DNA of 60,334 nt, taken from Deltaproteobacteria bacterium (GTDB lineage: Bacteria > Desulfobacterota > Desulfomonilia > UBA1062). Location of the stretch: the NCBI GenBank assembly GCA_029574005.1, contig JAKQBR010000308.1:1-60334 (forward strand), given 5' to 3'. Positions 138 to 18,598 of the stretch are shown piece by piece. The notes beneath the pieces are model-generated. The model was not told the origin of the DNA, did no database searches, and saw only the letters and a list, made by a program, of their open reading frames with translations. The translations under genes and the position numbers were made by a program. Within the stretch, counting starts at the first letter, position 1; each line of letters begins with the position of its first letter.

Positions 138-1085
138 TTACCATTTCTTGAGTACCACGTCACATGCAACCATGAAGTTTTCAAAATCATAGGATAACCC
201 AACGGTATGCATCGTGGGGGTGTAGCTGGTATAGATCTGGCCGGTGAGCGGTATATTGAGTTGTTTCGCTAAATTGACATTGGCCACGATGGTCAGCGGC
301 TCGACGTCGACCTGGTTGTGATAGCGGAATGAATAGGCCAGCTTCAGCTTCTGCTCGAAGGGCGTTACGAGCAGACCGAAGGTCGGGGCATAATTGCCCG
401 TCACGGTCAAGCCACCCTGCAGCGGTATGGCCTTGTTGCTGGGATCGAGCGTGGTATTGAGCGCGTTCAAGGAACCCTCGCCCCCCACACCGATCGAAAC
501 GCCGCCGCCTGCATACACGAGCTTTTCCAGGACCTCAACCCCAAGTCCGAGATTGATGATCAGGTGATTGACGTAATCGCCATAGGATATGAAGTGCGGC
601 TGGTCGGGTGGGAAACAGCGGATCCGCCAGAGATTATTAAAGTTCTCCGTCAAGGCCAACAGGACCCCGAGGGTCATGTTGGGCAGCTTCACGTATTTGT
701 CGGTTATGCCGTTCAGGTTGGCGGAAAGGCCGATCACCGGAGACCAAAAGTTAAGTCCGTCACCGCCGGCTCCGTCGGTCGGGTCAGAGCGCTCCCTCCC
801 TTCAGGATCATAGACGATCAGATCGCCGCCGGTCACCAGGTTTTTCACCTCGATATTCGGCTTGACATAGAGAAACTCCACGCTCATCTGATTGCCTCTG
901 AGCTGGCCAAGGCCGGCGGGGTTATAGTAGGTTGCCGCATAGTCATCCGCCACCGCCGCGAAGGCCCCACCCATGGCCGTGGCGCGGGCGCCGACGCCGA
1001 AGGCATCGGTCCAGGCATGGGCGGGCAGGGCATAACCAATCGCCATAAGGACAACGAATACAAAAATAACGCTGAATCTTCTCAT
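138..1085 (-). CDS. Outer-membrane beta-barrel, OMPP1/FadL/TodX-like hydrophobic-compound channel (315 aa)
   Basis: Signal peptide ending ALPAHA. The N-terminal block GVGARATAMGGAFAAVADDYAATYYNPAGL is typical of the FadL/TodX family. Amphipathic beta-strand pattern and C-terminal aromatic residue (..LKKW). RBS GAGGGGG upstream. Shorter than classical FadL. Confidence 0.65.
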   Translation of the reverse strand: MRRFSVIFVFVVLMAIGYALPAHAWTDAFGVGARATAMGGAFAAVADDYAATYYNPAGLGQLRGNQMSVEFLYVKPNIEVKNLVTGGDLIVYDPEGRERSDPTDGAGGDGLNFWSPVIGLSANLNGITDKYVKLPNMTLGVLLALTENFNNLWRIRCFPPDQPHFISYGDYVNHLIINLGLGVEVLEKLVYAGGGVSIGVGGEGSLNALNTTLDPSNKAIPLQGGLTVTGNYAPTFGLLVTPFEQKLKLAYSFRYHNQVDVEPLTIVANVNLAKQLNIPLTGQIYTSYTPTMHTVGLSYDFENFMVACDVVLKKW

Positions 1086-1114
1086 GTTAATGAACCCCCT
1101 CAGAAGTTTGTTGA

Positions 1115-1147
1115 GAGTGCGGGGCTGAGATCGTCAGCCCCGCACTC
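1115..1147 (-). other. Perfect 14-bp intercistronic hairpin between the 1021-aa lipoprotein gene and the porin gene
   Basis: GAGTGCGGGGCTGA (1115-1128) pairs perfectly with TCAGCCCCGCACTC (1134-1147), with a 5-nt loop. No U-run follows on the minus strand, so it is more likely a processing/stability or attenuating stem than a full terminator. Confidence 0.5.
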
Positions 1148-1158
1148 ACGTGTTGTTG

Positions 1159-4100
1159 CTAACCCCAGCAGTTGACGACAACCTTCAAGGCATCGAAAAT
1201 CCCATCGAAGAGCCTCGTTCCAGGCTGGAACTCCTGGTTGTGGAAGAATGTGCTCATATCGTTCATGACCCCGCCGAACTCGATGGCCTGGCCGTTATGA
1301 TCCAGGTGGATGGTCTTGAAGACCATGAGCATGACCGGATCCTGGCCGTTATACGACAGGCACATGGACCGGATGAATTCCCACGAGAGCATGTCATCCA
1401 GGTCATCTCCGAAGATCTTCTCCAGCCAATGCAGGTCCAGAGGATTATACGTCTCGTCCGCGTCTATGAGCCGCCACAGCACATCGCCGTTATCGCCGGT
1501 CAGGTCGAACAGGAAGTTCGTCAGGGGCGCGGTGTCGTAGATGCCCGTATCGCCCATCACGTGATTCACGACATCCATCACCGGCGTGTTGTCGTCATAC
1601 TTAAGCGCGCCGGCGCTCGGGTTATAGGTTGCATCGTAGATGCCCATCACCTTATAGCCCAGGGCCTTGAGGTTGAAGATCAGCGGGTTCTCCTTGCCGT
1701 TCACGTCATCCACGAGGTAGTCAATGAACGGCTGGAGCTTGCTGTCGGCGCTCACATAGTCGTAGTCCACGGTGCTGGCATCGATGATCTCATCCAGTCC
1801 GGGCACGGCCGCGGCCAGGTCTGAGGTAATCAGCTCGGCCTTGTCGCAGACCGTCGCCGCCAGATCCGCTGCCGCCGCGCTCACCTCGGTGTGGACATCG
1901 GCCTGGTTCAAGGTGTTGTTCACCAGGTTCCATACCGCGGTGCGATTGCCTTTGAGGCCTGCGCCGAGTTTGGGCAGCACGCCGGTCTGAACCAGGGCGG
2001 CCACATCGTCGCTGTAGAAGATATCTTTCTGCTTGTCGGTCTGATCCGTCGCGGTCATAATCACATCCCCCAGCGTGGCGCAGACCTGTGCCAACGGTTC
2101 ATGGTTGGCGCTGATGAAGGTATACAGATTATCGATGAACCCATCATCCTCGAACAGATCGTCTATGAGCTCCTGGTTGGTCTTGTCGTCAGGATTGAAA
2201 TCATGCGAGGTCAGAAGGTCGCACAGGTGCCTGAGCAGGTTGCTGTCCTCATACGGGGTTGTATTGAGCTTGTAGAGCACGCGCACCAGCAGGTCCAGTG
2301 CCGGATCCGCGATATCGGCATCATGATTGTAGCGCTCGCCCGAGGCGCCCCGCATGAGGTAATAGATCAACCCGTAGCCATACGGGCCCTCTATGGTCTC
2401 GAAGGCCGTACCGGTGTTGGCCTGGCGCAGGGTGCCCTTGTTCAGCCATATGGACATGGGCATGTAGGAGCTCAATTCAACCTCGTTCATGGCGCCGATG
2501 ACATGGATAAGCTGCGAACCATAGTTTATATCGCCGTAATACTGGATCAGCGGACCGGCCAAGGACAGCATGCGGTGATAATGGCCGGAGGTGAATTTCT
2601 TGTTGTTGCTCCCGGTAAAGGTCACGAGAGAGTTCATGGACTCGGTCATGATGCCCATGACATAGTCGGTCAGGGCGAAATTGGTCACGAAGTTCAAGAG
2701 CCAACTCAGTCCAGGGGTTGGAAGACCCATATATCTTATATCCTCGTTGAACCACAACCAGTCCGTTCCCTGCAGCGGATCTGGATAGGGCCGGTATTCC
2801 GCGGCCGAATCGATTGTGTAGGAGCCATGGAAGGATTTCGGATAGGAGTAGCACGACTGGCCCCAGAGATTGACCACGAACTGCAGGATATCGCTGCGCG
2901 TGCTGATGACCGGGCCGCCCGCCTCGCCTTTCTCGCCATCCTCGATGTCGATCAGGGAGAGGATCGCCTCGGTCGGATCGCCGCTCAGGGTATCCGAGAG
3001 GATGCACATGACGTCGAAGATCAGCATGATGGTGCGCATCTCGCTGAATTTCACCGTGCCGGTTTCGGTGGGCTCAAAGTCCTGATTCATCTGGAACATG
3101 GCACGGTACAGCGCATAATCGATCTCGTTCAGGTCTGGGATTGTATTGGTATAGGGGTCGCGCATATTGTATATCCGGGAAAGCGCGCTCGTCGCCCCGT
3201 AGATATTGTCGGCCCCGTCCAGTCCGTCAATGGCGTTGAGCACCCTAAGCATGAAGGCGCTCAGTTTCCCGCGACCCTCAGGCTTGAGGACATCCCCCAG
3301 GCAGTAGAGCAGGCGCTCCATATCGCTCATCGAACGCGTATCCCAGGCATTGTGTCCGTCGGATGCCTTGTTTGTTTTCATGAGGTGCCCGAGCGCGTAC
3401 ATCATCTTGTCAAGATCCTCCTTGATCTTCGGGTCCTCATCATAGAGTTTGTGCAGCGCGCTGAAGGTATCGATATAGAGCGGCAGGTTGTCCATATCCT
3501 CCAGATCCATATCCGGCAGCATGTCTTTCACATCCCCTACGGTGACATCCAGTCCCCGCTGGTCGATCTTGGCATCCAGTGCGTCCCATGCGTCGCGGAT
3601 GGCCTTGTAGTCCGCATTGTCTTCATCCAGGAAACCATGCGCCGCGTTCACCATGGCGCTGAAGTTCTGTCTGGTGAGCTTGCTGGTATCGAAGCCCAGA
3701 TCATTGATGGTGATTCCGTTCACGGCGTCATCGACTATCTGCTTGTCGCAGGCCATGACATAGGCCATCATCGGGAATACATGGGCCGTGAGGATATCAG
3801 GACCGGCGGTTCTGACGGCACGCGTCATGATGTCGCCGACATTGTTTTCGACCATCATGTCAAGCATGGCCAGCCCCGGGCTGCCGGCGGCTTCCTCGGC
3901 CGCTGTTTTCGGCTTCGTGCTGTCCATCCAGTCAACAATATTATTGAGCACACGGACCAGATTGCTGTAGTCCTCTGCCGAGGCATCGCCCGCGCGCACG
4001 GCCGCGTTCATGTTGCTCATCATGTTGTCGACCATGTCGAACATATCCCGCGAACTCATTCCGCCCAAGACCTGATTGAGATACGCATATTGCGTATCCT

Positions 4101-4224
4101 CTCCCAACAGAGACTCGCTCGTCAGACTATCGAGGTCGGGCTCATCGCTCTTACTGGCACACCCTGACAGGCAGCAACTTATGGTGAAGATCGCCAGAAG
4201 CAGGTATCTCATTGCGGATTTCAT
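1159..4224 (-). CDS. Large acidic, Met/Asp-rich lipoprotein of unknown function (1021 aa)
   Basis: Long uninterrupted ORF. Lipobox LLLAIFTISCCLSGC at the N-terminus. AT-rich promoter-like region upstream (4225-4620). I recognise no domain motif. Confidence 0.7.
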   Translation of the reverse strand: MKSAMRYLLLAIFTISCCLSGCASKSDEPDLDSLTSESLLGEDTQYAYLNQVLGGMSSRDMFDMVDNMMSNMNAAVRAGDASAEDYSNLVRVLNNIVDWMDSTKPKTAAEEAAGSPGLAMLDMMVENNVGDIMTRAVRTAGPDILTAHVFPMMAYVMACDKQIVDDAVNGITINDLGFDTSKLTRQNFSAMVNAAHGFLDEDNADYKAIRDAWDALDAKIDQRGLDVTVGDVKDMLPDMDLEDMDNLPLYIDTFSALHKLYDEDPKIKEDLDKMMYALGHLMKTNKASDGHNAWDTRSMSDMERLLYCLGDVLKPEGRGKLSAFMLRVLNAIDGLDGADNIYGATSALSRIYNMRDPYTNTIPDLNEIDYALYRAMFQMNQDFEPTETGTVKFSEMRTIMLIFDVMCILSDTLSGDPTEAILSLIDIEDGEKGEAGGPVISTRSDILQFVVNLWGQSCYSYPKSFHGSYTIDSAAEYRPYPDPLQGTDWLWFNEDIRYMGLPTPGLSWLLNFVTNFALTDYVMGIMTESMNSLVTFTGSNNKKFTSGHYHRMLSLAGPLIQYYGDINYGSQLIHVIGAMNEVELSSYMPMSIWLNKGTLRQANTGTAFETIEGPYGYGLIYYLMRGASGERYNHDADIADPALDLLVRVLYKLNTTPYEDSNLLRHLCDLLTSHDFNPDDKTNQELIDDLFEDDGFIDNLYTFISANHEPLAQVCATLGDVIMTATDQTDKQKDIFYSDDVAALVQTGVLPKLGAGLKGNRTAVWNLVNNTLNQADVHTEVSAAAADLAATVCDKAELITSDLAAAVPGLDEIIDASTVDYDYVSADSKLQPFIDYLVDDVNGKENPLIFNLKALGYKVMGIYDATYNPSAGALKYDDNTPVMDVVNHVMGDTGIYDTAPLTNFLFDLTGDNGDVLWRLIDADETYNPLDLHWLEKIFGDDLDDMLSWEFIRSMCLSYNGQDPVMLMVFKTIHLDHNGQAIEFGGVMNDMSTFFHNQEFQPGTRLFDGIFDALKVVVNCWG

Positions 4225-4537: not shown

Positions 4538-4575
4538 GGCATCGGTTCATCCCATATCCGGGATGAACCGATGCC
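4538..4575 (-). terminator. 16-bp hairpin downstream of the 479-aa lipoprotein gene
   Basis: GGCATCGGTTCATCCC (4538-4553) pairs with GGGATGAACCGATGCC (4560-4575). It lies about 50 nt after the stop at 4624. The flanking T-run is weak. Confidence 0.4.
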
Positions 4576-4623: not shown

Positions 4624-6063
4624 TTAATTGCCCGGCAGGCCGACAAAATCCAGATGCACCGGCAAGACGCAGACCGCATCGGTAGGGAGGCTGAGGAGGA
4701 AGTTTTCGAATTCCTTTTCCTGCTGGATGGTCAGGCCTTCACCAGATACCGGCTCCAATTTGGGCACGACGGCTACTCCGGCTAGAACGGCGTCACCCCA
4801 GCCGTCTAATCGCTCCCCCGTGGCGCTGTGCTTGAGCCCCTTCGAAGTCTCGGTCGTGACATTGGTCACCACGGCCACGCCTGGGAAGGGTATCTCGAAG
4901 ACCACCGGGTTGAAGGTGGCGTCAAAGGCCAGGTCTATCTGTCCGGTTTCCAGATCGACCGATCCCCCCAGTGAATGGGTCTCGATCTCGATGCGCACAA
5001 AGCCCAGCCCCGGAACCTCGCTCAGGAAGCGTATCCAGCCGGGTATGAGATCGAGATTCGGGACATTGAACTCGCTGAATTCCACCAGGGCCTTCTTGCC
5101 GTCATCGCTCAGCGTGTACGTACCAATGCCGTAGGACCCAAAGCCGTCGTAGCCGAAGGTCGGGAAGGTGGATATGGAAAGTTCGGCATCTTTACCGACC
5201 TTCATGAACACGCCCATCTCGCCGGTCGCCGGGGTCGGGGAGCCGGGGAATCGCCCCTCTGGAAAATCCAGGTGTGCTTCCATCTCGGTCACCGCGTCGG
5301 TCGGCAGGGATAGAAGCGCGTTGACGAACTCGGCATCCAACGGTTTTTCAGCACTGACGGCCTTGGGTATCTGTGCCACGCCGGCCAAGCGCAGATCGCC
5401 GCGGGCATTGAGCACGCGGCCGGCATACTCTTTTTCCGGGGCGATCTTGGTCCTGGACACACCGGTGTAAAGATCGGTGACCACGGACATTTCTGGATAT
5501 TCATAGCCGAACACGCTGGGTACAAAACGCGCGTCAAAGGAAAGCCTGACCTCGCCTGTCTTGAAGTCGACATACCCGATGAGGTCCTTGGACTTGATAT
5601 CCACCTGGACCGGGATATCAGGCAGGACAGATACCATATGCAGGGGCGGCACCGATTCCGGGGTGATATTCTCTTCCGGGAAGAACAATTCGGCCTTGCC
5701 GTCGCCGATATAGGTCATGGTCCCTTTTACGCCAGGGCCACGATCATTGTAAGGAAAGGACAAGGGGATAAAACCGATGGGCTTCTCAAAATCCTTCCAG
5801 ATGGTAAGGGTGCTGTCCCGGGTTCCCCAGGCATCGCCATCATGGAAGATGTTGTAGCCGATGGTCAGCCTGACCGGCTTGGTCTGTCCGATGAGATCCC
5901 GGTCCTCCAGCGCGGCCTGTTGTTTGTCCTTCCCGGATAAAGCCGTATCGGCGTCGTCGGAACCCGACCCGTTGCAGCCCGCTGCAACCATCAGCGCCAT
6001 CGCGGCGATGATCAAAGCCAAAGAAAACGACAACCGCACCTCGGCGTCCTTCATAGCTCTCAT
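4624..6063 (-). CDS. Lipoprotein with an internal tandem domain duplication, unknown function (479 aa from the ATG at 6063)
   Basis: RBS GAGGAGG lies just before the ATG at 6063, so the track start at 6081 is probably too long. Lipobox ALMVAAGC. Two repeated ~155-aa modules each end in LLSLPTDAV....HLDF. Confidence 0.7.
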   Translation of the reverse strand: MRAMKDAEVRLSFSLALIIAAMALMVAAGCNGSGSDDADTALSGKDKQQAALEDRDLIGQTKPVRLTIGYNIFHDGDAWGTRDSTLTIWKDFEKPIGFIPLSFPYNDRGPGVKGTMTYIGDGKAELFFPEENITPESVPPLHMVSVLPDIPVQVDIKSKDLIGYVDFKTGEVRLSFDARFVPSVFGYEYPEMSVVTDLYTGVSRTKIAPEKEYAGRVLNARGDLRLAGVAQIPKAVSAEKPLDAEFVNALLSLPTDAVTEMEAHLDFPEGRFPGSPTPATGEMGVFMKVGKDAELSISTFPTFGYDGFGSYGIGTYTLSDDGKKALVEFSEFNVPNLDLIPGWIRFLSEVPGLGFVRIEIETHSLGGSVDLETGQIDLAFDATFNPVVFEIPFPGVAVVTNVTTETSKGLKHSATGERLDGWGDAVLAGVAVVPKLEPVSGEGLTIQQEKEFENFLLSLPTDAVCVLPVHLDFVGLPGN

Positions 6064-6118
6064 GATGTCAATCCTCCTCATTCGTATTCATCCGGGGATG
6101 CACGGCATCCCCAAGAGC

Positions 6119-6153
6119 AAAAAACGGGACACGGTAGCGTGTCCCGTTTTTTT
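6119..6153 (-). terminator. Rho-independent (bidirectional) terminator after the flavoenzyme/microprotein operon
   Basis: A-run, then ACGGGACAC/GTGTCCCGT 9-bp stem (6124-6132 / 6139-6147), then T-run. It sits 4 nt after the microprotein stop at 6157. Confidence 0.7.
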
Positions 6154-6156
6154 GTT

Positions 6157-6294
6157 CTATGTCAGGTACCGGAAAGGAATATAGGGCACCTGTTTGATCA
6201 GCAGCATGAAATAGCGGCGCCGTCTGGGCATCCGGATGATCTCAAAGGCCCAGTATCCCAGCAGACCCAATAACAGGTATTTTTTAATGTTCAT
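6157..6294 (-). CDS. Microprotein A (45 aa), single predicted TM helix plus conserved C-terminal VPYIPFRY motif
   Basis: Hand translation: MNIKKYLLLGLLGYWAFEIIRMPRRRRYFMLLIKQVPYIPFRYLT. RBS GGAAGGAG lies 7 nt upstream. It starts 15 nt after the stop of the upstream flavoenzyme gene. A paralogue is at 9535-9678. Not in the ORF track (<60 aa). Confidence 0.6.
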   Translation of the reverse strand: MNIKKYLLLGLLGYWAFEIIRMPRRRRYFMLLIKQVPYIPFRYLT

Positions 6295-6309: not shown

Positions 6310-7857
6310 TTAAAGGTGATCCTGCTTGATCAGATCGCTCGTGATCAGGGCCGAAGACATGACGGTTGGGATACCACCGGACATGTGCGTGGAAGCCCCC
6401 ACCAGGTAGAGATTCTTGATGGCCCATGAGCGCGAGCGCGGCCGCAAGGGCCCCAGTGTGGTCATATCAAAGTCCAGTCCATAAATGCATCCGCGCGGAG
6501 CCAGGAGCCGGCGTTCGAAATCGAGCGGCGTGGACACCTTGGCATAGACGATATGCTTCTTGATGCCGGGCGAGAATACGCGGTCAAAGAAATCAATGCC
6601 CTCGTCCAGATAGCGATTGCGCATATTGTCCCAGTTGGTCCCGATCGGCGCATAGGGCACCGGCGCATTGTAGACGAAGTTTACGATATGGTGCCCCTTG
6701 TGAGACGACAGCTCCGGGTCTGCGTCCGTTGGCCAGCAGGCCAGCGACAGGCCGTTGCCGCGCGGCATGCAGTCGGCTTTATAATCGTACCACACCTTGT
6801 TCACGCTCGCCAGATCGGCCGCCAGCATGGTGTGGTGGGCGTTCAGGGCCGGTTCGGTATCCATGGCAAGGTAGATCATGGGGCAGCCCATGGACGGTGT
6901 ATAGGAGTTTATGCCGACATTGATGTGCCAGGGCAGGTTGTCGCGACCCACGAGGTTCTTGTAGGTCGTGAGCGCGCTGATATTGGAAAGCACGATGGGT
7001 GCCGTGATCTCCGTGCCGTCGGCCAGGCGCACGCCTTTGGCCTCTTTGTTTTTGCTCAAGAGGATGCGATCCACCAGGGTATTGGTCCTGATCTCGGTGC
7101 CGAATTCCTTGGCCACGGCCGCCAGGCCGTTGGGGATGGCGATCATGCCGCCCCTGGGATAGTAGATGCCGTAGTGCTCGGTCAAGGCAATGAGCCCCAG
7201 GAAGCCGGGGCAGAGCTCGGGGGCGGCGCCGACGAAGTAGCTCTGGAACGCCATGGAGCCGAGCACGATCGGGTCCTTGAAGCTTTTGCTGATGACGGAT
7301 TCATGCGTGGAGGCCATGAGCGGCAGCATGGAGGAGGTGCCGGGATTCTTGAGGACCATCTTTATGCAATCGGTCAGGGTCTGCATGGAGGAGCCCAGGA
7401 CCGCCATCAGATTCTTGTCGATCATCTTTTTGCCGTCGGCGGCGAATTTCCGGAAGGTCTCGCCGTCTTGCGCGTTGATGCTGGAGATGACCTTGCAGGT
7501 CTCTTCCCAGTCCACCGGGTAGGCGAACTTCTGGCCCTTCTCGTTGACGAAGGCATAGATCGGATCGCAGGGGATCAGATCCATATAGTCCTCCACCTTG
7601 CGCCCGCAGCGTTTGAAGACCTCATACATGGGGTCCACGAGCTCCACGATGGAGGCGCCGACATCGAGTTTATACCCTTCGTCTTCATAGGTCGAGCAGC
7701 AACCGCCGATGATACTGGACTGTTCCAGGACCAACACCTTGAGCCCCTGTTTGGCAAGCATGGCTGACGTGGCAAGTCCACCGATACCGGCCCCGATAAC
7801 GATCATATCGTAGTCGTATTGATTGGTTCCGAATTTAACCTTGGGATTTCTGCCCAT
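6310..7857 (-). CDS. Phytoene-desaturase-superfamily (CrtI/CrtISO/RetSat-like) FAD oxidoreductase, paralogue 3 (515 aa)
   Basis: N-terminal Rossmann motif DMIVIGAGIGGL...VLE, then GGCCSTYEDEGYKLDVGASIVEL, GIYYPRGGM, and C-terminal LYLVGASTHMSGGIP. RBS AAGGAGAA. Confidence 0.85.
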   Translation of the reverse strand: MGRNPKVKFGTNQYDYDMIVIGAGIGGLATSAMLAKQGLKVLVLEQSSIIGGCCSTYEDEGYKLDVGASIVELVDPMYEVFKRCGRKVEDYMDLIPCDPIYAFVNEKGQKFAYPVDWEETCKVISSINAQDGETFRKFAADGKKMIDKNLMAVLGSSMQTLTDCIKMVLKNPGTSSMLPLMASTHESVISKSFKDPIVLGSMAFQSYFVGAAPELCPGFLGLIALTEHYGIYYPRGGMIAIPNGLAAVAKEFGTEIRTNTLVDRILLSKNKEAKGVRLADGTEITAPIVLSNISALTTYKNLVGRDNLPWHINVGINSYTPSMGCPMIYLAMDTEPALNAHHTMLAADLASVNKVWYDYKADCMPRGNGLSLACWPTDADPELSSHKGHHIVNFVYNAPVPYAPIGTNWDNMRNRYLDEGIDFFDRVFSPGIKKHIVYAKVSTPLDFERRLLAPRGCIYGLDFDMTTLGPLRPRSRSWAIKNLYLVGASTHMSGGIPTVMSSALITSDLIKQDHL

Positions 7858-9715: not shown

Positions 9716-11221
9716 TTATGCGCGAGCTTCCAGGATCTTGTCCGCGGTCACGACGCCGGAGGCCACCGATGTCGGCACGCCGCCGCCGAAGTGCGTTGAA
9801 GCACCGGCCAGGAACAGGTTCTTGATGACCCGCGACTTGTTGCTCATGCGGAACATGGCCAGCGAGGTGATATCCGAGAACAGGCCATAGATGCCGCCTT
9901 CCGTATGCAGCAGCCGGCGCTCGAAATCGAGCGGGGTGGAGACATCCATCATCGTGACATGTTTGCGGGCATCCGGCAGGACGTACTTCTCGAGCTCCTT
10001 GAGGCCCTGCTCTTTGTACCAATCCTTGCAGCGATCCCAGTTCTCGCCGATCGGGGCGTAGGGGGCCGGGGCGTTGCAGATCCAGTTCAGCACGTGGTGA
10101 CCTTCCGGTGCCAGGGTCGGATCGGCTTCGGTGGGCCAGCAGATGAGGCTCATGGCGTTCTGCGGGATGAGCCCCTTCATATAGTAGTCATCCCAGACGG
10201 AATTCATCTTCTCCAACGGTCCGGTTACGATGGTGTGGTGGGCATTCAGGTTGGGCTTGGCATCCAAGCCGACATAGATCATGGGGCACGGCATGGACTT
10301 CTGATAGCTTGAAACCGCTATATTAGCCCAACGCGGCAGGATCTCCGGACCGATGAGCTTGAGGTAGGTGACCTTGCCATTGATATTGGAAACGACGATA
10401 TCGGCCGTGATCTCGGTACCGTCTGAAAGCACGACACCCTTGGCGGTCTTATCCTTGACGATAATCTTATCGACCTTCTTGTTGAGCTCGACCTTGAGGC
10501 CGTATTCCTGCCCGGCGCGCATGATGGCTGAAGGGATACTGATCATGCCGCCCTTGGGATAATAGATGCCAAGGTGCTCGGAAAGAGCGATCATGCCGAA
10601 GATACCGGACCCCAGGTAAGGCGGACAACCGGCAAAGAACGACTGGAAGGAAACCGAGGCCAGCATGTCCTTGTTCGTGAAGGCCTTTCTCACGCACATC
10701 TCATGGTTCTGGACAAAGTACGGCAGGATCTTGTAGAGCTTGGGATATTTCGCAACGATTTTCATGGCGGCGCCGAAGGTATTCATATCGGCGCAGAGCA
10801 TGGCCTCCATGGCATAGTGCAGGAGCCACATCCCAAACTCTTCAAATTTGACCCAGCTATCATAGTCCTCGGGGGCCATCTTCTTGATGACCTCGCGGGT
10901 CCCCTCCAGGCTCGTCGGCATGGTGAAGCGCTTGCCTTCCGGGGTAATGAACGAATAGATCGGATCACAGGGGACGAGATCAAGGTAATCCTTGATATTC
11001 TTGCCCATGCGTTCGAAAACGACTTCAAGCGGGCGCACCAGTTCGACGATAGAGGCACCCACATCAAATTTATAGCCCTGGTTCTCGAAGGTCGAGCAGC
11101 ATCCGCCGATGACATTGTTCTGCTCAAGGACCAAAACCTTCATGCCCTTCTTGGAAAGCAGCGAACCCGTCGTAAGCCCGCCCAACCCGGCACCTATGAT
11201 TATCGCATCATAATCAGCCAT
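9716..11221 (-). CDS. Phytoene-desaturase-superfamily (CrtI/CrtISO/RetSat-like) FAD oxidoreductase, paralogue 1 (501 aa from the ATG at 11221)
   Basis: RBS AAGGAGAAGG precedes MADYDAIIIGAGLGGL, so the track start at 11281 is probably an over-extension. Motifs GGCCSTFENQGYKFDVGASIVEL, GIYYPKGGM, LFLAGASTHFGGGVP. Confidence 0.85.
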   Translation of the reverse strand: MADYDAIIIGAGLGGLTTGSLLSKKGMKVLVLEQNNVIGGCCSTFENQGYKFDVGASIVELVRPLEVVFERMGKNIKDYLDLVPCDPIYSFITPEGKRFTMPTSLEGTREVIKKMAPEDYDSWVKFEEFGMWLLHYAMEAMLCADMNTFGAAMKIVAKYPKLYKILPYFVQNHEMCVRKAFTNKDMLASVSFQSFFAGCPPYLGSGIFGMIALSEHLGIYYPKGGMISIPSAIMRAGQEYGLKVELNKKVDKIIVKDKTAKGVVLSDGTEITADIVVSNINGKVTYLKLIGPEILPRWANIAVSSYQKSMPCPMIYVGLDAKPNLNAHHTIVTGPLEKMNSVWDDYYMKGLIPQNAMSLICWPTEADPTLAPEGHHVLNWICNAPAPYAPIGENWDRCKDWYKEQGLKELEKYVLPDARKHVTMMDVSTPLDFERRLLHTEGGIYGLFSDITSLAMFRMSNKSRVIKNLFLAGASTHFGGGVPTSVASGVVTADKILEARA

Positions 11222-11470: not shown

Positions 11471-12643
11471 CTAGAGCAGTTTCGCTATTTGGGCCTGCAG
11501 CCAGTTGCCGATGCTCTTTTTATAACCCGGCATATAGGTGTCCATGAAGTGCTGGATGCGCATATTCTCATTCCCGACATCCACCATGAGCTGCCCGTAA
11601 TTTTCCGGCACGTCCCGCCGATCCGCGCGCAAAACCATATGCAAGGCACCGGCCTTACACTTCGAGGCGCATATCCCGCAGCCGATGCAGCGCCAGGGCT
11701 CGTGGATCAGTTTTTTGTCGTATATATGCAGCGCTCCGGCCGGACACACCTTGGCGCAAGCACCGCAGGACGTACAGAGGCCGGCATCGAAGCGCACGAC
11801 ATAACGGCTGTTGACAAACATGGCCGGGGTGTTGAACCTCGTCATGGTGGCGAGTGATACGCAGCAGCAGGCGCAGCAGTTGCAGCAGATAGCCGGATTC
11901 TCGATATTGTCCGTAAAGTGAACCAGACCGGACTCTTCGGCGCGATCGACCGCCTCCAATATTTCCTGTTTGCTGACCATGCGGCCGAAGCCCACCTTCT
12001 CCACGTAACGGGCCGCCGCGCCGAACTGCATGCACACGTCCATGGGATGCGAACAGCGCTGACCGACGTACTCCTTCTGCCTCCTGCAGGCACAGGCCGA
12101 GGCCAAGGACCAGGCATCCTGGCGATCGATGATTTCACGAATGCTCTCCGACGGCAGAACACCGGTTTTGATATCCGGCAGACTCTCCTGAATCGGAATG
12201 ATGCGAAACACCTTTGATGGGCCGATGAGCATCTTCTGTGAATATTCAAGATTATAATACTGCTCGAAGAGCTCAGCGAACCTGCGGGTCCTTTCGTCAT
12301 CAGGGGCCTTGTACATGAAGGCCTCAAAGATGCCCGGCATCATCGGCATGACGATATATTTACGGTCCGCGCCGTCCCCGAAGGCGAATATCACCCCCCG
12401 GTCGGCCAATCTGTCCAGGATAACCCGGACCTCCTCCACCGGGCGGTGCACCCGTCGGGCGACCTTTTCGGCCGTGGGGCTCAGGATCGTTACCTTGCTT
12501 GCGATGAGGGCCTCTTCCTCACTGAACAACAGCTCGAGGATCTCAAGCAGCAGTTCATTGATGACGGATTTCAGCGGGGGCAATTGGTTCAAACGTTTTG
12601 CGAGCAGTTTATGCGCCTTGGTAGCCACGGAACCTCCTATCAA
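11471..12643 (-). CDS. Winged-helix-like N-domain / Cys-rich / 2x[4Fe-4S] ferredoxin-domain protein (390 aa)
   Basis: The C-terminus carries CTSCGACAKVCP and CIGCGICASKCK ferredoxin motifs. Extra Cys clusters: CACRRQ...C.....C and NPAICCNCCACCC. The N-terminal segment LSPTAEKVARRVHRPVEEVRVILDRLADRGVI looks MarR/wHTH-like. Confidence 0.7.
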   Translation of the reverse strand: MIGGSVATKAHKLLAKRLNQLPPLKSVINELLLEILELLFSEEEALIASKVTILSPTAEKVARRVHRPVEEVRVILDRLADRGVIFAFGDGADRKYIVMPMMPGIFEAFMYKAPDDERTRRFAELFEQYYNLEYSQKMLIGPSKVFRIIPIQESLPDIKTGVLPSESIREIIDRQDAWSLASACACRRQKEYVGQRCSHPMDVCMQFGAAARYVEKVGFGRMVSKQEILEAVDRAEESGLVHFTDNIENPAICCNCCACCCVSLATMTRFNTPAMFVNSRYVVRFDAGLCTSCGACAKVCPAGALHIYDKKLIHEPWRCIGCGICASKCKAGALHMVLRADRRDVPENYGQLMVDVGNENMRIQHFMDTYMPGYKKSIGNWLQAQIAKLL

Positions 12644-12936: not shown

Positions 12937-14298
12937 CTAGCTCTCTTCGAGCTGGTGGTTTAAGAAATAATAGAGGAACCACGACATATTCTCGGCATAC
13001 TCTTCCTTGCTGCACTCCAGGACGCCCATGTTCCTCAGGAAGGTTGAAAAGCTCACGGTTGAAAGGATGATCTGCGCGGCGATGACGGGATCGACGTCGG
13101 TGCAAAAACCCTGCTCCTTGAGGGCGGCGATACGAAGACCCAGCGTTTCGGCGAAGGAGGAGAAATAGCCACGGTAATGGTTGCTGATCTTATCGCTGCA
13201 GAAGGTGCCCTGCAGGATAGCCCAGTTGAATGGGGTATCGAAGATATCCACGATCTGGTAGCTGATCCTTCTGAGTTCTTCTATGGACGACGTGTCCAGG
13301 CGTGCGATGAAATCCTTTGACGTCGCATTGAGCGGATTTATCCTCGAGATCATATTGCTGAAGACCGCTTCGATAATATCATCCTTGTCCTTGAAATAGA
13401 GGTAGAACGTCCCCCGGCTCAAGTCCGCGCGCTTGGCGATATCCGCGATGGTCGTATCGAAGTACCCCTTGGCCGCCAGCTCTTCCTCGGCCGCCTTGAT
13501 CAGCTCCTTGCGGGTCTTCTTATCCTTTTCCGAACCGTTGCGCCCCTTCTTGCCGGTCCGGCGCGCGCCTTTTTCGAGCATAAAGCCTGGGTAGAGGATG
13601 CCGGTGATCGTCTTGGCTAGATCCTCGTGAGTGGCCGTGATCATGCCCATGGTGCTCATCAGAATGGAGGTGGCAATACAGATGGACATGAAATCCGCCA
13701 GGATATCGACATTACAGTCCCGATAGCGCCCTTTCTTCTGCACCGTCTTGAGCACAACCTTGAAGATGTAGGCCGAGTCGCGCACGGCCTGCGTCGAGAG
13801 GGCAAAAATCTCCTTGCTCTGCAGCATGCCCTGCACAAGGGCCTTCATAAGGCCGGAGGCCATGGCCAGGGATTCCACAACCGTCCGAATGGTACCCTCA
13901 AACAGAGGAAGCAACTCCGGGGTAAGGGTGACCTTCTGGATATTGATCTGAGAGTTCACCGCATTGGAGATCTGCGGCACCATCTGCAGAAGGTCCTGCA
14001 CCATTGCCTTGAGGATATCGTTCTTGTTTTTGAAATACAGATAGAACGTGCCGTGGCTCACCCCGGCACGCTGGGTGATGGAATCCACATTGGTCAGGTA
14101 ATAGCCATGCTCGCTGAATTCCTTGATGGCCGCATCCAGCAGCCGCTGGCGCGTTTGTTCGCTGGCCACCTGTGTAGGTACAGTATTATATTCCAAGATT
14201 AGCCCTCGTGGGCCTAGTGCTAGCATCCCGGTCGCCGGTCTGTCAACTGTTCGCCTCGACGCATGACCACGGCGAGGTTCTTCACTGCCATCATGCAA
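12937..14298 (-). CDS. TetR-family regulator made of two complete TetR units in one polypeptide
   Basis: Two HTH boxes: TRQRLLDAAIKEFSEHGYYLTNVDSITQRAGVSHGTFYLYFKNKNDIL and TRKELIKAAEEELAAKGYFDTTIADIAKRADLSRGTFYLYFKDKDDII. Each is followed by a ~150-aa ligand-domain-sized region. The true start is uncertain; an alternative is the ATG at 14226. Confidence 0.8.
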   Translation of the reverse strand: MHDGSEEPRRGHASRRTVDRPATGMLALGPRGLILEYNTVPTQVASEQTRQRLLDAAIKEFSEHGYYLTNVDSITQRAGVSHGTFYLYFKNKNDILKAMVQDLLQMVPQISNAVNSQINIQKVTLTPELLPLFEGTIRTVVESLAMASGLMKALVQGMLQSKEIFALSTQAVRDSAYIFKVVLKTVQKKGRYRDCNVDILADFMSICIATSILMSTMGMITATHEDLAKTITGILYPGFMLEKGARRTGKKGRNGSEKDKKTRKELIKAAEEELAAKGYFDTTIADIAKRADLSRGTFYLYFKDKDDIIEAVFSNMISRINPLNATSKDFIARLDTSSIEELRRISYQIVDIFDTPFNWAILQGTFCSDKISNHYRGYFSSFAETLGLRIAALKEQGFCTDVDPVIAAQIILSTVSFSTFLRNMGVLECSKEEYAENMSWFLYYFLNHQLEES

Positions 14299-14382
14299 CG
14301 CCTGGCCGCAACGATCGCGTCGGCATGCGGCGGCAACAATAAGATCTACAGGATCACCTCGATAGCCCGGCCAATCCCTGAC

Positions 14383-14399: not shown

Positions 14400-14545
14400 T
14401 CATTATAGAATGACGGTTCATTTCACGACAGTCCCTCAGCATTGCTCTTGTGTAAACATATAATCGAATGATATATGGATGTCATGACTGACGCTGTGTT
14501 TAGTTTTATCCGCCATAAGATGTCGGTCTTCTTGTATGAGGAGGT

Positions 14546-15946
14546 GTGCGTATGCCGGAAAAAGTATTTGACTGCGTGGTGATCGGTTCCGGGGTCGGCG
14601 GAAGTTGCGCCGCCGCCATGATGGCCCACTACGGCTACAAGGTGCTCCTGGCGGAAAAACGCGCCAATCTGGGCGGCAGGTTTTCAACCATGGAGATCGA
14701 CGGCTTCAAATGCCCCACCGGCGCATTGATCGTCACGCGTGGGACCGAGCTGGAAAAGACCTTCAAGGTCACCGGAGCCGAGTTCGACATCGTGAAGGCC
14801 GCCCAGGTCTCCTGGAAGATCGGCGACACGGTCTACCCGGTCTCCGGCCCTGGTGCGCTCAAGACCCTGTGGTCACTCTTCACCAAGCTGCCGCCCAGGC
14901 TCTACCGCTATGCCTTCATGTCGACGCTCAGACTCTTCGGCGCCATGGGGGAAATACTCTTCTTCAAATTCTTAAACCTGTTCCGCAAGGAGGAGGATTA
15001 CGTCTATCGCCGACATGAGGAAAACCCGGTCACGTTCCGTGAATGGATCGAGAGATACACGGACGACAAGGTCGTGATACAGTCCGTGCACGCCTTCATC
15101 TCGGCCCTGTTCAGCGCCATCAATGACTTCGAATGTCCGGCATCGGATGTCTTCGCCTTCGGCGCCAGCATGGCCAACCCCTTCAAGCCCCACACCTTCG
15201 GCTTTGCCCGTCACGGCAACGTCGAGCTCATGAAGTCCCTGGCACGGGTCGTCACGCAGAAAGGCGGCGAGGTTATGACCGAGACCGAGGTCAAAGAGAT
15301 CAAGATCTCGAATGGCGTGGCCACCGGCGTGGTCCTCGTCGGCCCGCAGGGCGAGTTCGAGGTCGCGGCCAAGACCGTGATCAGCAATGCCGGGCCCAGC
15401 GCCACCATGAACATGGTCGGCGAGCGGCACTACCCTGAGCCCTATGTGCGCAAGCTTAAGCAGACCCTGAGGCCGGCGCCCATCGTCATGGGCAACATCG
15501 CGAGCGACGTGCCGCTGATCGACCACAAAGGGCTCGTGGTCATTACCGGCACCAAGACCATTGTGGGCGCCGTAAACCTGACGTACCACACCAGGGATGT
15601 CGCCCCTGAAGGCCAACACCTCCTCTGGACCTTTGCCACGCCCGCCACCTGCACAAGCAAGATCGACAAGGAGATGGAGATCCGCCACCACATGGAGGAC
15701 CTGGAGACCGCCTTCCCGCTCTTCAAACAGCACGGCCGCGTGCTAGATCTCATGGTCAAGGACATCGACGACGATCTGCCCTGTTTGCGCACCTGGCCGG
15801 GGTATGACATGCCAGTGACCACCCCGATCCCCAACCTCTTCAATGTGGGCGACGGCGTCAAGGACTTCGGCTGGACGGGTTGCCCGGCCTGCGCCAAGAG
15901 CGCCTGGAAGGTTGTGAAAAAGATCCGCAGGGATTACCCGCTGTAG
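14546..15946 (+). CDS. FAD-dependent oxidoreductase, phytoene-desaturase/amine-oxidase superfamily (466 aa)
   Basis: RBS GAGGAGG. Motif VFDCVVIGSGVGGSCAAAMMAHYGYKVLLAEKRANLGGRFST (GxGxxG ... E ... GGR). Confidence 0.8.
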   Translation: MRMPEKVFDCVVIGSGVGGSCAAAMMAHYGYKVLLAEKRANLGGRFSTMEIDGFKCPTGALIVTRGTELEKTFKVTGAEFDIVKAAQVSWKIGDTVYPVSGPGALKTLWSLFTKLPPRLYRYAFMSTLRLFGAMGEILFFKFLNLFRKEEDYVYRRHEENPVTFREWIERYTDDKVVIQSVHAFISALFSAINDFECPASDVFAFGASMANPFKPHTFGFARHGNVELMKSLARVVTQKGGEVMTETEVKEIKISNGVATGVVLVGPQGEFEVAAKTVISNAGPSATMNMVGERHYPEPYVRKLKQTLRPAPIVMGNIASDVPLIDHKGLVVITGTKTIVGAVNLTYHTRDVAPEGQHLLWTFATPATCTSKIDKEMEIRHHMEDLETAFPLFKQHGRVLDLMVKDIDDDLPCLRTWPGYDMPVTTPIPNLFNVGDGVKDFGWTGCPACAKSAWKVVKKIRRDYPL

Positions 15947-16075
15947 GCAGGATGGAATGTCCGGACAATATCAGAAATTGCCAGCCGGTGGGTTGGCCTG
16001 GGACGCTGATCGATCATCAGAGATGCGATCGGTCAGCTCTCTGTTTATGCCCAAGGAGACTGAGAGGAGACTGAG

Positions 16076-17413
16076 ATGGGTGCCACGTATGATGCCATCG
16101 TCATTGGGGCCGGTATCGCCGGTTTAGGAATCAGCGGGATTCTGGCCCGCGCGGGGAAAAAGGTGGTTTTGCTGGAAAAGAACTCCCATGTGGGAGGAAG
16201 GGCCGCCACCTTCAAAAAGGACGGCTGGGTGCGCAGCATCGGCCAGCATGCCGCCTTGAAAGGCCAGCGATACGACACCCTGCTGCAGACCCTCGGGGTT
16301 GACTGCCCGCGCGAGTATTTCGGCGACCTGCAGATGTATTATGAAGGCCAGTTCAAAAGCATACTCGACATCATCCCCACGTTGGTCGCCCGCTTGAGTC
16401 CGGAAGACAACCTGAGGATTGCTGAAAAGCTGCTCAACCCGGCCGTCGATCTGGATGCGCTCGACGACATCTCCGCCGATGTATGGATTAAAGAGATCAT
16501 AACCGATGAGGTCTTGCTGGACTTCATGCGCATGGCAACGGTTATCATGACGACCATCCCCTTCATGAAGGATATGGCCGCCAGCACCCTGAAGGAATCC
16601 ATCATGATCATTACGCGCACCATGGAAACCTGGCTGGCTGCCAACGGCATGGGTGAATTCATGGAGGCCATGGCCGCCGACATCCGGCGGCATGGCGGAG
16701 AAATTCGGACGAACACCCCGGTGGAAAGGATCCTCATCAAGGACAAGAAGGTTCTCGGGGTTCTGGCCGGGGAGAAGATTGTAGCGGAAGTGGAAGGGGA
16801 GTTCGGCAATGTCACCACGATCGAGGCGCCGGTGGTCATATCCGCCATCCCCGTCTGGGAGATCTTCAAGATCGCCCCACAGGACGAGTTCCCGCAGGAT
16901 TTCGTGAAAAAGGCCTGGAATGTGTCGGCACACACCGCCAATCTGGGGCTTACCGCCGGGCTGAAAAAATCGGTCTACGAAGGCCGCGGATTGCTCATGG
17001 TCGATTATCCGAGCCTCGGATACCCGGGCAGCATCTTCATGCCCACCAATGTCTGCCCGAACCTGGCCCCTGCTGGCTACCAGCTTTTTGAGGCCTCCAT
17101 CATCTGCGACTACGACATCCGCAAAGACCCGGAACAGCTGCACCACATGATGGCCATGCTCAACAAAGACCTGCAGACATGGTTCCCCGGCTGGGACAAG
17201 CAGGCACTATGGATCAAGAACTACTTCCATTATGAAGAACCGAAACGCACCCCGGGTCGCGCCGGCAGGCATCGCCCCGATTACACGGCCGCAGGGATTC
17301 AGGGGCTGTTCCTGTGCGGGGATTCGATCGGCTCCCGCTGCCTGCCGGGGATGGAGTGCGCCGCCGATTCGGCCATGACCTGCGCCGAGATCGTGCTCGG
17401 CACGATGAAATGA
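16076..17413 (+). CDS. FAD-dependent oxidoreductase, phytoene-desaturase/amine-oxidase superfamily (445 aa)
   Basis: RBS GAGGAG. Motif YDAIVIGAGIAGLGISGILARAGKKVVLLEKNSHVGGRAATF and C-terminal LFLCGDS. Confidence 0.8.
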   Translation: MGATYDAIVIGAGIAGLGISGILARAGKKVVLLEKNSHVGGRAATFKKDGWVRSIGQHAALKGQRYDTLLQTLGVDCPREYFGDLQMYYEGQFKSILDIIPTLVARLSPEDNLRIAEKLLNPAVDLDALDDISADVWIKEIITDEVLLDFMRMATVIMTTIPFMKDMAASTLKESIMIITRTMETWLAANGMGEFMEAMAADIRRHGGEIRTNTPVERILIKDKKVLGVLAGEKIVAEVEGEFGNVTTIEAPVVISAIPVWEIFKIAPQDEFPQDFVKKAWNVSAHTANLGLTAGLKKSVYEGRGLLMVDYPSLGYPGSIFMPTNVCPNLAPAGYQLFEASIICDYDIRKDPEQLHHMMAMLNKDLQTWFPGWDKQALWIKNYFHYEEPKRTPGRAGRHRPDYTAAGIQGLFLCGDSIGSRCLPGMECAADSAMTCAEIVLGTMK

Positions 17414-17488
17414 TCGAATCAATACGGATATGAGCGCCCAGAAAGATCCTGCTAGGGATTAACTACTGCGCAAACAAGGAGGTATGCA

Positions 17489-18598
17489 ATGAAAAGGCTA
17501 TCTATACTCATGGTTGCTGTCATGTTCTTCATCGCGGCATGTTCACAGAAGGACGGTGACAGCCGGCAGAATTCGACCGATACCAAGACATCTGCCCAGG
17601 AAACGTCCGCAATCGATTACTCCCGGTACGAAAACCTTGACGTGGATTCGTACGCTGATTTTAATTCACTGCCCGCCGATCTGAAGGAAGATGTCTATGC
17701 AAAGGCATTGCTCCTTGCCGGTCTGATGGATCGATCCAGAGGATGCAAAGAATGCAATGCTGTTTCCGCCGGCATCTATTCCACGATCAACTCGGTGGCC
17801 TGCCTGCTGTACCATTGCTGGAAGCCCATGGTCTCGTGCGTCATCGACGGAGAGTGCAGGACGCAGCTCATGTCTTTAGGCGACTGCGTTCTCAAAGGCG
17901 GCGACGCAATGATGCTGTGCTGTATCGACGTCTTTTCAAAGCCCAACGAGAAGCTCATGGCAATGATGTCGTCCCTGGGAGACAGCGGATGCATGCCTGA
18001 ACCCGTGCTGAACTGCGCCCTCCCCACGAACAGGAACCAGATCGCGCCCGTCTCCCTGGCGGACCTAGAAGGCGACTGGTATGTGGTGCGCGGATTGAGC
18101 CCCGTCTATGACTGCTTCAGCGGCCAGAGATATTCGTTCCACCAGATAAGCGAGACCGTATCGACGTACGACTATACCTACTTCCCGAAGGACAAGGGAA
18201 CCCCGACACTGATCAAATGCACCACCACCGCGATTCCTTTTGCCCCGGGCGAGACAGAGATCTTTCCGGGGCGCTTCCGCGTCAACTACACGGCCTATGG
18301 GATGCCGGGCGTTGACGACTGGTTCGTCCTGAGCCATCCAAAGAGAGATTACCTGCTGATATTCTACTGCGGGGCAAACGCCATGGACTCATACGTGGGG
18401 GGCATCGTGCTCAGCCGTTCGCTCGATACCGATATCCCCAAGGATATCCTGAATGCCTTTGAGGACGCGCTGGCCAATGCCGGCATCGCCGATCCGGTTT
18501 CGCTGGCGGATTTCTGCACCCCGGACAATTCGGGGATTACCTATGACGATACCGCTGAGAGCTGGGAATCGACCCTGTTTCTGTCCTCACTCTACTGA
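17489..18598 (+). CDS. Violaxanthin de-epoxidase (VDE)-like lipoprotein: Cys-rich N-domain plus lipocalin domain (369 aa)
   Basis: RBS AAGGAGG and lipobox FFIAAC. There are 11 Cys between residues 86 and 176 (ACLLYHC....C....C...). The lipocalin part (GDWYVVRGLSPVYDCFSGQRYSFH; DDWFVLSHPKRDYLLIFYCGANAMDSYVGGIVLSRS; FCTPDNS) matches, from memory, the plant VDE blocks [59 protein letters not shown] and TDNTCGPEP. Confidence 0.7.
   Translation: MKRLSILMVAVMFFIAACSQKDGDSRQNSTDTKTSAQETSAIDYSRYENLDVDSYADFNSLPADLKEDVYAKALLLAGLMDRSRGCKECNAVSAGIYSTINSVACLLYHCWKPMVSCVIDGECRTQLMSLGDCVLKGGDAMMLCCIDVFSKPNEKLMAMMSSLGDSGCMPEPVLNCALPTNRNQIAPVSLADLEGDWYVVRGLSPVYDCFSGQRYSFHQISETVSTYDYTYFPKDKGTPTLIKCTTTAIPFAPGETEIFPGRFRVNYTAYGMPGVDDWFVLSHPKRDYLLIFYCGANAMDSYVGGIVLSRSLDTDIPKDILNAFEDALANAGIADPVSLADFCTPDNSGITYDDTAESWESTLFLSSLY

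Follow-up and report, generated by a model that had tools for sequence, protein, structure and literature searches.

Characterised members of the CrtI family of flavoproteins act on isoprenoid chains. We compare with this family, and with a few systems around it, a locus on a contig from a metagenome-assembled genome (MAG) labelled 'Deltaproteobacteria bacterium' at NCBI (contig JAKQBR010000308.1, assembly GCA_029574005.1); the window is the whole stretch of 60,334 nucleotides, and the locus occupies its positions 138 to 18,598. The limonene dehydrogenase CtmAB consists of two tandem COG1233 paralogues in a cluster that also holds a ferredoxin, CtmE, and a reductase, CtmF, with the genes of two unexplained hypothetical proteins, CtmC and CtmD, after ctmAB; its closest relatives are found in a sulfate-reducing deltaproteobacterium (PMC4109377). 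The delta-24 steroid desaturase is an alpha4beta4 complex of two paralogues without Fe-S, and both subunits of this enzyme and of CtmAB carry the motif G-F-[LR]-x-[NS]-[TL]-H-A, whose His binds the flavin covalently (PMC11061730). IsrA, the putative isoprene reductase of Acetobacterium wieringae, has an N-terminal region of about 270 amino acids (aa) of unassigned fold, with CxC motifs at Cys180/182 and Cys254/256 and then a [4Fe-4S] motif at residues 289-300 (PMC10134865). For the uptake of alkanes, Marinobacter needs both AupA, a FadL-family protein, and its operonic partner AupB, which is of unassigned fold (PMC5989066).

Judged by its sequence, the locus supports the existence in anaerobes of a putative TetR-controlled system of CrtI-type flavoproteins, microproteins and an Fe-S protein that is as yet uncharacterised and whose context is not biosynthetic. 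The most solid new facts are the microprotein partner of the flavoproteins and the pairing of a large lipoprotein with a FadL channel. Three adjacent but separable modules can be distinguished, and they plausibly share a task in a strictly anaerobic deltaproteobacterium, the uptake and transformation of a hydrophobic isoprenoid or polyene compound, although we hold this reading only tentatively. The core module and its regulator are as follows.

12937-14298, minus strand: single-chain double TetR regulator with two TetR_N stretches (111 bits), called as 410 aa from 14169
11471-12628, minus strand: Cys-rich Fe-S protein, 385 aa, 2x[4Fe-4S] at residues 282-340
9716-11221, minus strand: CrtI-family flavoprotein C, 501 aa (TIGR02734, 296.7 bits)
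9535-9678, minus strand: microprotein 1, 47 aa, transmembrane helix plus ...AKNVPYLPFRYFI
8005-9513, minus strand: CrtI-family flavoprotein B, 502 aa (TIGR02734, 294.8 bits)
6310-7857, minus strand: CrtI-family flavoprotein A, 515 aa (TIGR02734, 280.8 bits)
6157-6294, minus strand: microprotein 2, 45 aa, N-terminal transmembrane helix, basic patch and C-terminal ...IKQVPYIPFRYLT
6119-6152, no strand assigned: bidirectional terminator-like hairpin, 15-bp stem flanked by A6 and T6, ending the flavoenzyme operon

Much of this had been described in an earlier note made from the DNA alone, and its account of the core holds up well. The double TetR is borne out by the two TetR_N stretches found in a hidden Markov model (HMM) search, and with it the presence of TetR-type control; the terminator after the flavoenzymes corresponds to the hairpin with its A and T runs; and the three tandem proteins of about 500 aa, which had been placed in the phytoene-desaturase superfamily, all match the NCBIfam model TIGR02734 (crtI_fam) over its full length and above its subfamily cut-off of 238.1 bits. 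None of the three reaches an NCBIfam equivalog cut-off, the best being CrtID (206-242 vs. 640 bits), with carot_isom at 136-159 vs. 587 bits. Their closest solved structures, with CrtI and CrtD structures matched by sequence, are Pantoea CrtI (4dgk; E 2e-52 for flavoprotein B) and a gamma-carotene desaturase. The adjacent paralogues are mutually 43-46% identical and carry no signal peptides, and are therefore cytoplasmic. A further feature of A, B, C and their orthologues is the sequence GGCCS[TS][YF]E directly after the dinucleotide-binding motif, a pattern with which the clade could be retrieved from GTDB. The usual form at this position in the CrtI family is a GGR-type motif; vertebrate RetSat has a similar GGCC motif.

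Of particular interest are the two very short reading frames interleaved with the flavoprotein genes. These are real genes, for single-pass membrane proteins of 45-47 aa that occur with the flavoprotein clade across phyla, and they lie directly downstream of C and of A. Both are built alike, with a hydrophobic helix at the N-terminus, then a basic patch, and ...K-Q/N-V-P-Y-[LI]-P-F-R-Y-x-x as the C-terminal end. Microprotein 1 stands between the C and B orthologues of five loci (L009, L016, L017, L019 and L034), four of them in Actinomycetota MAGs; microprotein 2 is kept after the A orthologue in L009 and L020; and a microprotein is also found 3' of A-type or C-type genes in MAGs of Deltaproteobacteria, Syntrophaceae, Bacteriovoracaceae and Chloroflexota. 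By a strict pattern, at least 13 of 36 CrtI-like genes with 37% identity or more have a microprotein gene downstream (about 18 by visual inspection), as against only 1 of 71 with less than 37%. The arrangement suggests that the microproteins may tether the flavoproteins to the inner membrane, where a lipophilic substrate would dissolve. A membrane protein of 45-50 aa is easily missed by gene callers, and its partnership with a CrtI clade stands whatever the substrate proves to be.

Conservation of gene order was followed by scanning one genome per GTDB species with the three paralogues as queries and then running tblastn with all window proteins. The order C-microprotein-B recurs at 57-63% identity in anaerobic Actinomycetota MAGs, with C orthologues (59-62%) directly upstream of B orthologues (57-63%) and a fused MerR-TetR regulator in front of the pair, as in L017 and L019. 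An A orthologue, 75% identical, lies on the chromosome of Deltaproteobacteria bin23 (L020); its neighbours there are a further CrtI-like gene and genes for a SnoaL-like protein, an SDR, a TRAP transporter and DUF362 Fe-S proteins. The same tblastn searches found no lipoproteins, FadL or violaxanthin de-epoxidase (VDE)-like protein of the kinds described below in the Actinomycetota C-B loci or in L020. L009 keeps the full minus-strand order of flavoprotein operon, both lipoprotein genes and FadL gene, with flavoproteins at 96-98% identity and the 1021-aa lipoprotein at only 65%, the lower figure being as expected for an exposed envelope protein. Gene-neighbourhood conservation, proposed in the earlier note as a check, is thus found for two units, C-microprotein-B and lipoprotein-FadL, and for the whole order only in close relatives.

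The Cys-rich Fe-S protein, the remaining member of the core, shows in a 52-sequence alignment the invariant cysteines C179-x-C181, C192, C199 and C249-x-C251-C252...C256, followed by 2x[4Fe-4S]; the signature of the module is CxC...C...C, then CxCCxCCC, then two ferredoxin motifs. Its AlphaFold2 model is of high quality (pLDDT 92), and Foldseek of the model and profile searches against the PDB recovered the ferredoxin domain only, plus marginal winged-helix matches. Of the protein's earlier description, the poly-Cys region and the two [4Fe-4S] motifs stand; the N-terminal region is helical, and its reading as a winged helix is weakly backed (Foldseek E ~0.1). Cys-rich Fe-S modules are found beside CrtI-family genes in six loci; versions of 265-278 aa lie directly beside such genes in L011, L016, L017 and L019, and a full-length version does so in L018. 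In most of the Actinomycetota C-B loci the Cys-rich Fe-S gene adjoins a more distant CrtI-like gene. Because it recurs in this company, the module is suggested to pass electrons between the flavins and a low-potential carrier. As a general rule an obligate partnership with CrtI-type proteins was rejected, full-length homologues adjoining unrelated genes as well. In plasmid records, tblastn with the N-terminal domain of the Fe-S protein found no fusion of the IsrA type, only stand-alone homologues of 425 aa in Cetobacterium and Acetoanaerobium.

Downstream of the core, still on the minus strand, is the presumed outer-membrane module:

4624-6081, minus strand: lipoprotein of about 479-485 aa with lipobox AAGC, in which a domain of about 200 aa occurs twice in tandem
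4538-4575, no strand assigned: hairpin between both lipoprotein genes, 16-bp stem
1159-4224, minus strand: acidic, mostly helical lipoprotein of 1021 aa, lipobox LSGC
1115-1147, no strand assigned: hairpin between the 1021-aa lipoprotein gene and the FadL gene, 14-bp stem
138-1085, minus strand: truncated gene for a FadL-family outer-membrane channel, signal peptide plus residues 1-313 of about 470
1-137, minus strand: start of an IS66-family insertion sequence (first open reading frame (ORF) beginning at about 68), at the junction that truncates the FadL gene

Both lipoproteins have a lipobox, taken as a signal peptide ending in L-x-[GA]-C, and neither has a sequence match in Pfam, NCBIfam or PDB, in keeping with the earlier view that they lack a recognisable domain. 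The halves of the smaller one are 38% identical (E 2e-27), which makes it a domain of about 200 aa duplicated in tandem; L009 has an orthologue of it at 84% identity, and L012 a homologue at 42% with two FadL genes and an Fe-S homologue close by. The family of the 1021-aa lipoprotein is rare, with 4 clusters in 5.8e9 proteins and, by profile search, 38 representatives in 1.84e9; the lipobox Cys is invariant in 16 members, and an AlphaFold2 model built from only 4 usable homologues reached a pLDDT of 31. In all five loci inspected, two of them with distant homologues found by direct look-up, the next gene downstream of the lipoprotein gene belongs to the FadL family, and the two co-diverge, down to 24-28% identity. 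That a lipoprotein gene of this size (about 1000 aa) always lies directly upstream of its own FadL gene, a finding that stands whatever the substrate, suggests that some FadL transporters use a dedicated lipoprotein. In L007 (1-9033) a 50% identical lipoprotein-FadL pair is found beside a CCG-domain protein, two FAD_binding_4 proteins (582 and 546 aa), two NAD_binding_8 proteins of 360 aa and an AMP-binding (acyl-CoA) ligase. The pair keeps company there with other enzymes and is therefore a portable uptake module rather than one specific to CrtI-type proteins; in L007 it could serve a different pathway, for a hydrophobic acid, with the same means of import. In L007 and L008 the homologous pair is immediately preceded by an IS1595 transposase gene. 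Together with the IS66 element in the window's FadL gene, this suggests that the uptake module lies in mobile DNA.

The channel itself is broken in this genome. The fragment scores 29.8 bits against Toluene_X (PF03349; cut-off 29.7), in the hatch region at 31-89 only, and its assignment to the FadL family is based on 54% identity to residues 1-313 of the 470-aa FadL of L007, a full-length orthologue with a clear Toluene_X match; after this point there is a stop. A FadL-family barrel of full length has 14 strands, about 420-470 aa and an N-terminal hatch, and the window does not encode one, the ORF ending at residue 313 at the IS66 junction. The earlier identification of a FadL/TodX-like barrel is hence correct as to family and incorrect as to a complete barrel. 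Positions 1-137 of the window are identical to 1063-1199 of L010, an independent assembly in which an identical 315-aa FadL fragment is followed, in L010 1063-3540, by a complete IS66 element with a 110-aa ORF, TnpB_IS66 and DDE_Tnp_IS66; the channel is therefore interrupted in the population. The contig probably ends at this junction owing to the IS66 repeat, and the uptake route may be inactive in this genome, its channel gene being cut.

A further locus with relatives of these genes is L012 (1-21152), where the smaller lipoprotein has its 42% homologue and the Fe-S protein one of 51%, in the company of two molybdopterin oxidoreductases, ferredoxins, an SDR, a SnoaL_2 protein and the two FadL genes. 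It may be a locus for the anaerobic oxidation of a hydrophobic substrate. Its pair of SDR and SnoaL_2 genes also follows the CrtI genes in L020.

The third module reads divergently from the regulator:

14546-15946, plus strand: Amino_oxidase-family flavoprotein, 464-466 aa (crtI_fam 67 bits, below the cut-off)
16076-17413, plus strand: Amino_oxidase-family flavoprotein, 445 aa, weakly similar to HpnE and PRK07233
17489-18598, plus strand: VDE-family lipocalin lipoprotein, 369 aa, lipobox IAAC, Cys-rich N-terminal region

Both flavoproteins had been listed as FAD oxidoreductases, and HMM search places them in the Amino_oxidase family; at 62-67 bits they fail the crtI_fam cut-off. The third protein, announced as a periplasmic VDE-like lipocalin, gives significant matches to PF07137 (89.8 vs. 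a cut-off of 25.7 bits, profile positions 2-242) and to Arabidopsis thaliana VDE (3CQN, E 4e-10), by which it is a true member of the VDE family. A bacterial lipoprotein homologue of the plant enzyme is unusual, and its relatives fall into only 13 clusters. The motifs DDW and Y-x-G, in which the reported catalytic Asp and Tyr of VDE lie, align between the protein and 3CQN; as a sign of de-epoxidase activity this alignment is only suggestive. The 445-aa flavoprotein adjoins the VDE-like gene only in relatives in which the latter is 87-90% identical, and where the VDE-like homologue is 51-68% identical the flavoprotein genes are not adjacent. Hydrolases of the CocE/NonD type (Peptidase_S15 plus PepX_C) occur near the CrtI orthologues of L016 (17-1903) and near a 65% VDE-like homologue in L014 (11727-14213), which may be coincidence or may reflect a shared esterase step.

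HMM scans of ORFs of at least 120 aa across the 60-kb window found no member of the SQS_PSY, polyprenyl synthase or lycopene cyclase families. Pfam scans of L017 and L020 and spot checks of L016 and L019 likewise found no genes for carotenoid synthesis. The absence of phytoene synthase, GGPP synthase and cyclase, from which it had been argued that the locus is not one of ordinary carotenoid biosynthesis, is thus borne out over the full 60 kb; with no crtB, crtE or cyclase gene there or in the related loci L017 and L020, ordinary biosynthesis is rejected. A variant of it is that the cell modifies an isoprenoid lipid of its own (squalene-derived or carotenoid-like membrane lipids, or the side chains of polyprenyl quinones) and that the envelope proteins export the product to the outer membrane. 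The canonical role of the CrtI family is indeed biosynthetic, the enzymes appear to be membrane-anchored, and a second Amino_oxidase cluster stands beside an HpnA-type SDR at 44.9-51 kb. Yet neither the 60 kb nor the two orthologous loci scanned encode a phytoene, squalene or prenyl-diphosphate synthase or a cyclase, control of the TetR type is what one expects of inducible genes for catabolism or efflux, and the signs of an acquired accessory island (lower G+C, the insertion sequence at the edge and the C/B orthologues in another phylum) point the other way; we consider this variant distinctly unlikely.

That second lipid-type cluster occupies 44868-52325 (plus strand) and 52484-54091 (minus strand). 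It begins with three tandem Amino_oxidase genes (44868-49656), one CrtI/CrtISO-like (123 bits) and two weakly like PRK07233/HpnE, and further holds a protein with a DAPG-hydrolase domain and one or more lipase-like alpha/beta hydrolases. Its SDR lies just above the cut-off for HpnA, the 'hopanoid-associated sugar epimerase' (370.8 vs. 367.65 bits), and also resembles the sterol demethylase protein SdmB. In all, the 60-kb window contains eight genes of the Amino_oxidase superfamily.

The contig also tells something of the host, through the following genes:

25292-36586, plus strand: Wood-Ljungdahl set comprising FTHFS, two CooC-type ATPases, CODH, a fused ACS/CdhD-like ORF of 1191 aa and CdhD with an Fe-S domain

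FTHFS, CooC and CODH/ACS genes, all found by HMM scans, thus share the contig with the flavoenzyme locus, and the host is therefore a Wood-Ljungdahl anaerobe; of the FTHFS profile, the listed ORF matches the C-terminal 322 residues only. The locus has a G+C content of 56%, against 64% for the neighbouring Wood-Ljungdahl genes. This difference, the insertion sequence at the edge and the occurrence of the best C and B orthologues in another phylum suggest that the locus belongs to an acquired accessory island. At 37441-41380 on the minus strand, flanked by a PAS/histidine-kinase region and the Wood-Ljungdahl genes, are genes for a nitroreductase fused to 2x[4Fe-4S], a 412-aa ORF without a family match and a 475-aa alpha/beta hydrolase.

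From the memberships in the CrtI, VDE and FadL families it is a reasonable inference that the substrate would be hydrophobic and of isoprenoid type. The scheme that follows is one in which we infer the substrate class, the electron path, the membrane anchoring and the cooperation between modules. The core module (minus strand, 12.6-6.1 kb), whose expression the double TetR probably controls, encodes three cytoplasmic CrtI-family flavoproteins; these would hydrogenate, dehydrogenate or isomerise an exogenous isoprenoid or polyene chain at its C=C bonds, with C and A held at the inner membrane by their own microproteins. The Cys-rich protein, with its 2x[4Fe-4S] and an extra cluster, would couple the flavins to the low-potential redox pool of the cell. 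Delivery of the substrate across the outer membrane would fall to the two lipoproteins, of 479 and 1021 aa, and the FadL channel, and the divergent module would contribute two flavoproteins and a periplasmic VDE-type lipocalin that binds or modifies the lipid. Because the host is an anaerobe with the Wood-Ljungdahl pathway and the enzymes have an Fe-S partner, ferredoxin-driven saturation is somewhat favoured as the direction of the reaction, and a ferredoxin-fed saturase could give such an anaerobe an extra electron sink. The most specific form of this proposal, that flavoproteins, microproteins and the IsrA-like Fe-S protein constitute a hitherto unrecognised ferredoxin-driven reductase that saturates the conjugated C=C bonds of carotenoids or isoprenoid polyenes, fed by a new lipoprotein-FadL import module of two genes, is one that we think doubtful. 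If it were true, such a reductase would be a biological route to hydrogenated carotenoid and isoprenoid skeletons in anoxic habitats, possibly as a sink for Wood-Ljungdahl electrons. More generally, a system for polyene or isoprenoid C=C bonds would give a function to a generically annotated 'phytoene desaturase-like' clade of Deltaproteobacteria, anaerobic Actinomycetota and Chloroflexota, and would show how plant and algal carotenoids, squalene and terpenes are transformed without oxygen.

Several observations weigh against a shared task. The whole arrangement is found only in close relatives (L009 and L001), and the modules also occur separately, the CrtI pair in monoderm Actinomycetota, the lipoprotein-FadL pair with other enzymes and the VDE-like gene alone; strong hairpins separate them, and their adjacency could be incidental. 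The FadL gene is interrupted by IS66, and the locus holds no genes for later catabolic steps (CoA ligase, beta-oxidation). None of the close homologues has a known substrate or activity. Full-length homologues of the Fe-S protein are also found beside molybdopterin oxidoreductases, transporters and a GPAT in Acidobacteriota, Fusobacteriota and Clostridia, and the family may be one of general redox proteins or regulators. The extreme case would be that the modules are unrelated neighbours on an accessory island, acting on different substrates. Each is found independently in other genomes, the hairpins and insertion sequence activity fit such a history, and flavoprotein and hydrolase genes abound in the region as a whole; set against this are the order of flavoenzyme operon, lipoproteins and FadL, preserved in L009 despite a lipoprotein at 65%, the flavoprotein-VDE adjacency kept in relatives with a VDE-like protein 87-90% identical, and the circumstance that every module points to lipophilic substrates. 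We regard such an unrelated assembly as improbable. What finds no support is the single envelope-spanning system of the earlier note: hairpins divide its three parts, the parts occur independently, the whole order has been seen only in L009 and L001, and FadL is broken. Of the proposed uptake and transformation of a hydrophobic lipid, the substrate class remains reasonable from the CrtI, VDE and FadL memberships and the one integrated system is not supported. The locus looks like a set of loosely joined modules for a hydrophobic, isoprenoid-type substrate, not one proven machine.

The statement that no characterised system has such an architecture overlooked CtmAB and the delta-24 steroid desaturase (PMC4109377, PMC11061730); full-text literature searches found no paper on this gene combination. 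The likeness to these two enzymes lies in tandem, diverged phytoene-dehydrogenase-like paralogues, an anaerobic setting and, as predicted for the window, isoprenoid substrates, with, for CtmAB, an Fe-S protein gene in the cluster. The window's neighbouring paralogues are 43-46% identical, and the C-B pair is conserved across phyla. Another reading is one in which a flavoprotein heteromer hydroxylates or desaturates an allylic position without O2, its electrons leaving through the Fe-S protein, as the oxidative activation of a terpene, a steroid side chain or a squalene-like hydrocarbon for catabolism. For it speak the precedent of tandem COG1233 paralogues with a ferredoxin in anaerobic terpene degradation (PMC4109377), the two-paralogue alpha4beta4 complex of the desaturase (PMC11061730) and, in the window, the tandem paralogues with a TetR regulator and a FadL-type uptake gene. 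The covalent-flavin His motif, though, is absent from A, B and C, which carry G-Y-[KT]-[FL]-D-[VT]-G-A with Gly where CtmAB and the desaturase have the flavin-binding His; a regular-expression search through roughly 100 loci recovered that motif in just two, L059 and L094, and to those genes A, B and C are about 25% identical. Membership of A, B and C in the CtmAB/delta-24 desaturase family is accordingly rejected. Both enzymes are moreover soluble and themselves without Fe-S, whereas the window has membrane microproteins and a dedicated Fe-S partner, a Cys-rich 2x[4Fe-4S] protein in place of the 2Fe-2S ferredoxin and reductase of the CtmAB cluster, and the vicinity lacks genes for CoA ligase, beta-oxidation and alcohol or aldehyde dehydrogenases. 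We consider oxidative activation of this kind unlikely.

With CrtI and CrtD, flavoproteins A, B and C share a full-length match above the cut-off, the same FAD-binding fold and size and, as predicted here, a membrane-peripheral character and chemistry on isoprenoid C=C bonds. They differ in forming a triplicate of paralogues of about 500 aa with the GGCCS motif, microproteins and an Fe-S partner, in lacking synthase or cyclase context and an equivalog assignment, and in the strictly anaerobic nature of the host. The VDE-like protein resembles plant VDE (3CQN) in having a PF07137 lipocalin domain after a Cys-rich region, in an oxidising, extracytoplasmic compartment. Unlike the plant enzyme it is a bacterial lipoprotein in an anaerobe, without the Glu-rich C-terminal domain, in a host where neither ascorbate nor a xanthophyll cycle is expected, and its distant homologues are not linked to flavoprotein genes.

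The Fe-S protein may be compared with IsrA, which likewise sits with flavoproteins in a Wood-Ljungdahl anaerobe and is proposed to act on conjugated C=C bonds. The window's C179-x-C181, C249-x-C251...C256 and [4Fe-4S] motif at 285-295 lie close to the positions given for IsrA, which were compared by published description, not by alignment. The IsrA module is fused to an NfnB/GltD-type flavoprotein and accompanied by HypA/HypB, whereas that of the window stands alone by CrtI-type flavoproteins, with no hyp genes. For the outer-membrane module, finally, AupA/AupB is the nearest precedent. In NCBIfam the window's FadL fragment has a weak match to AupA (E 4e-5). Whereas AupB resides in the inner membrane, the window's partner is a lipoprotein of about 1000 aa without NCBIfam similarity, whose gene lies upstream of that of the channel; in both systems a FadL-type channel is encoded together with an operonic partner.

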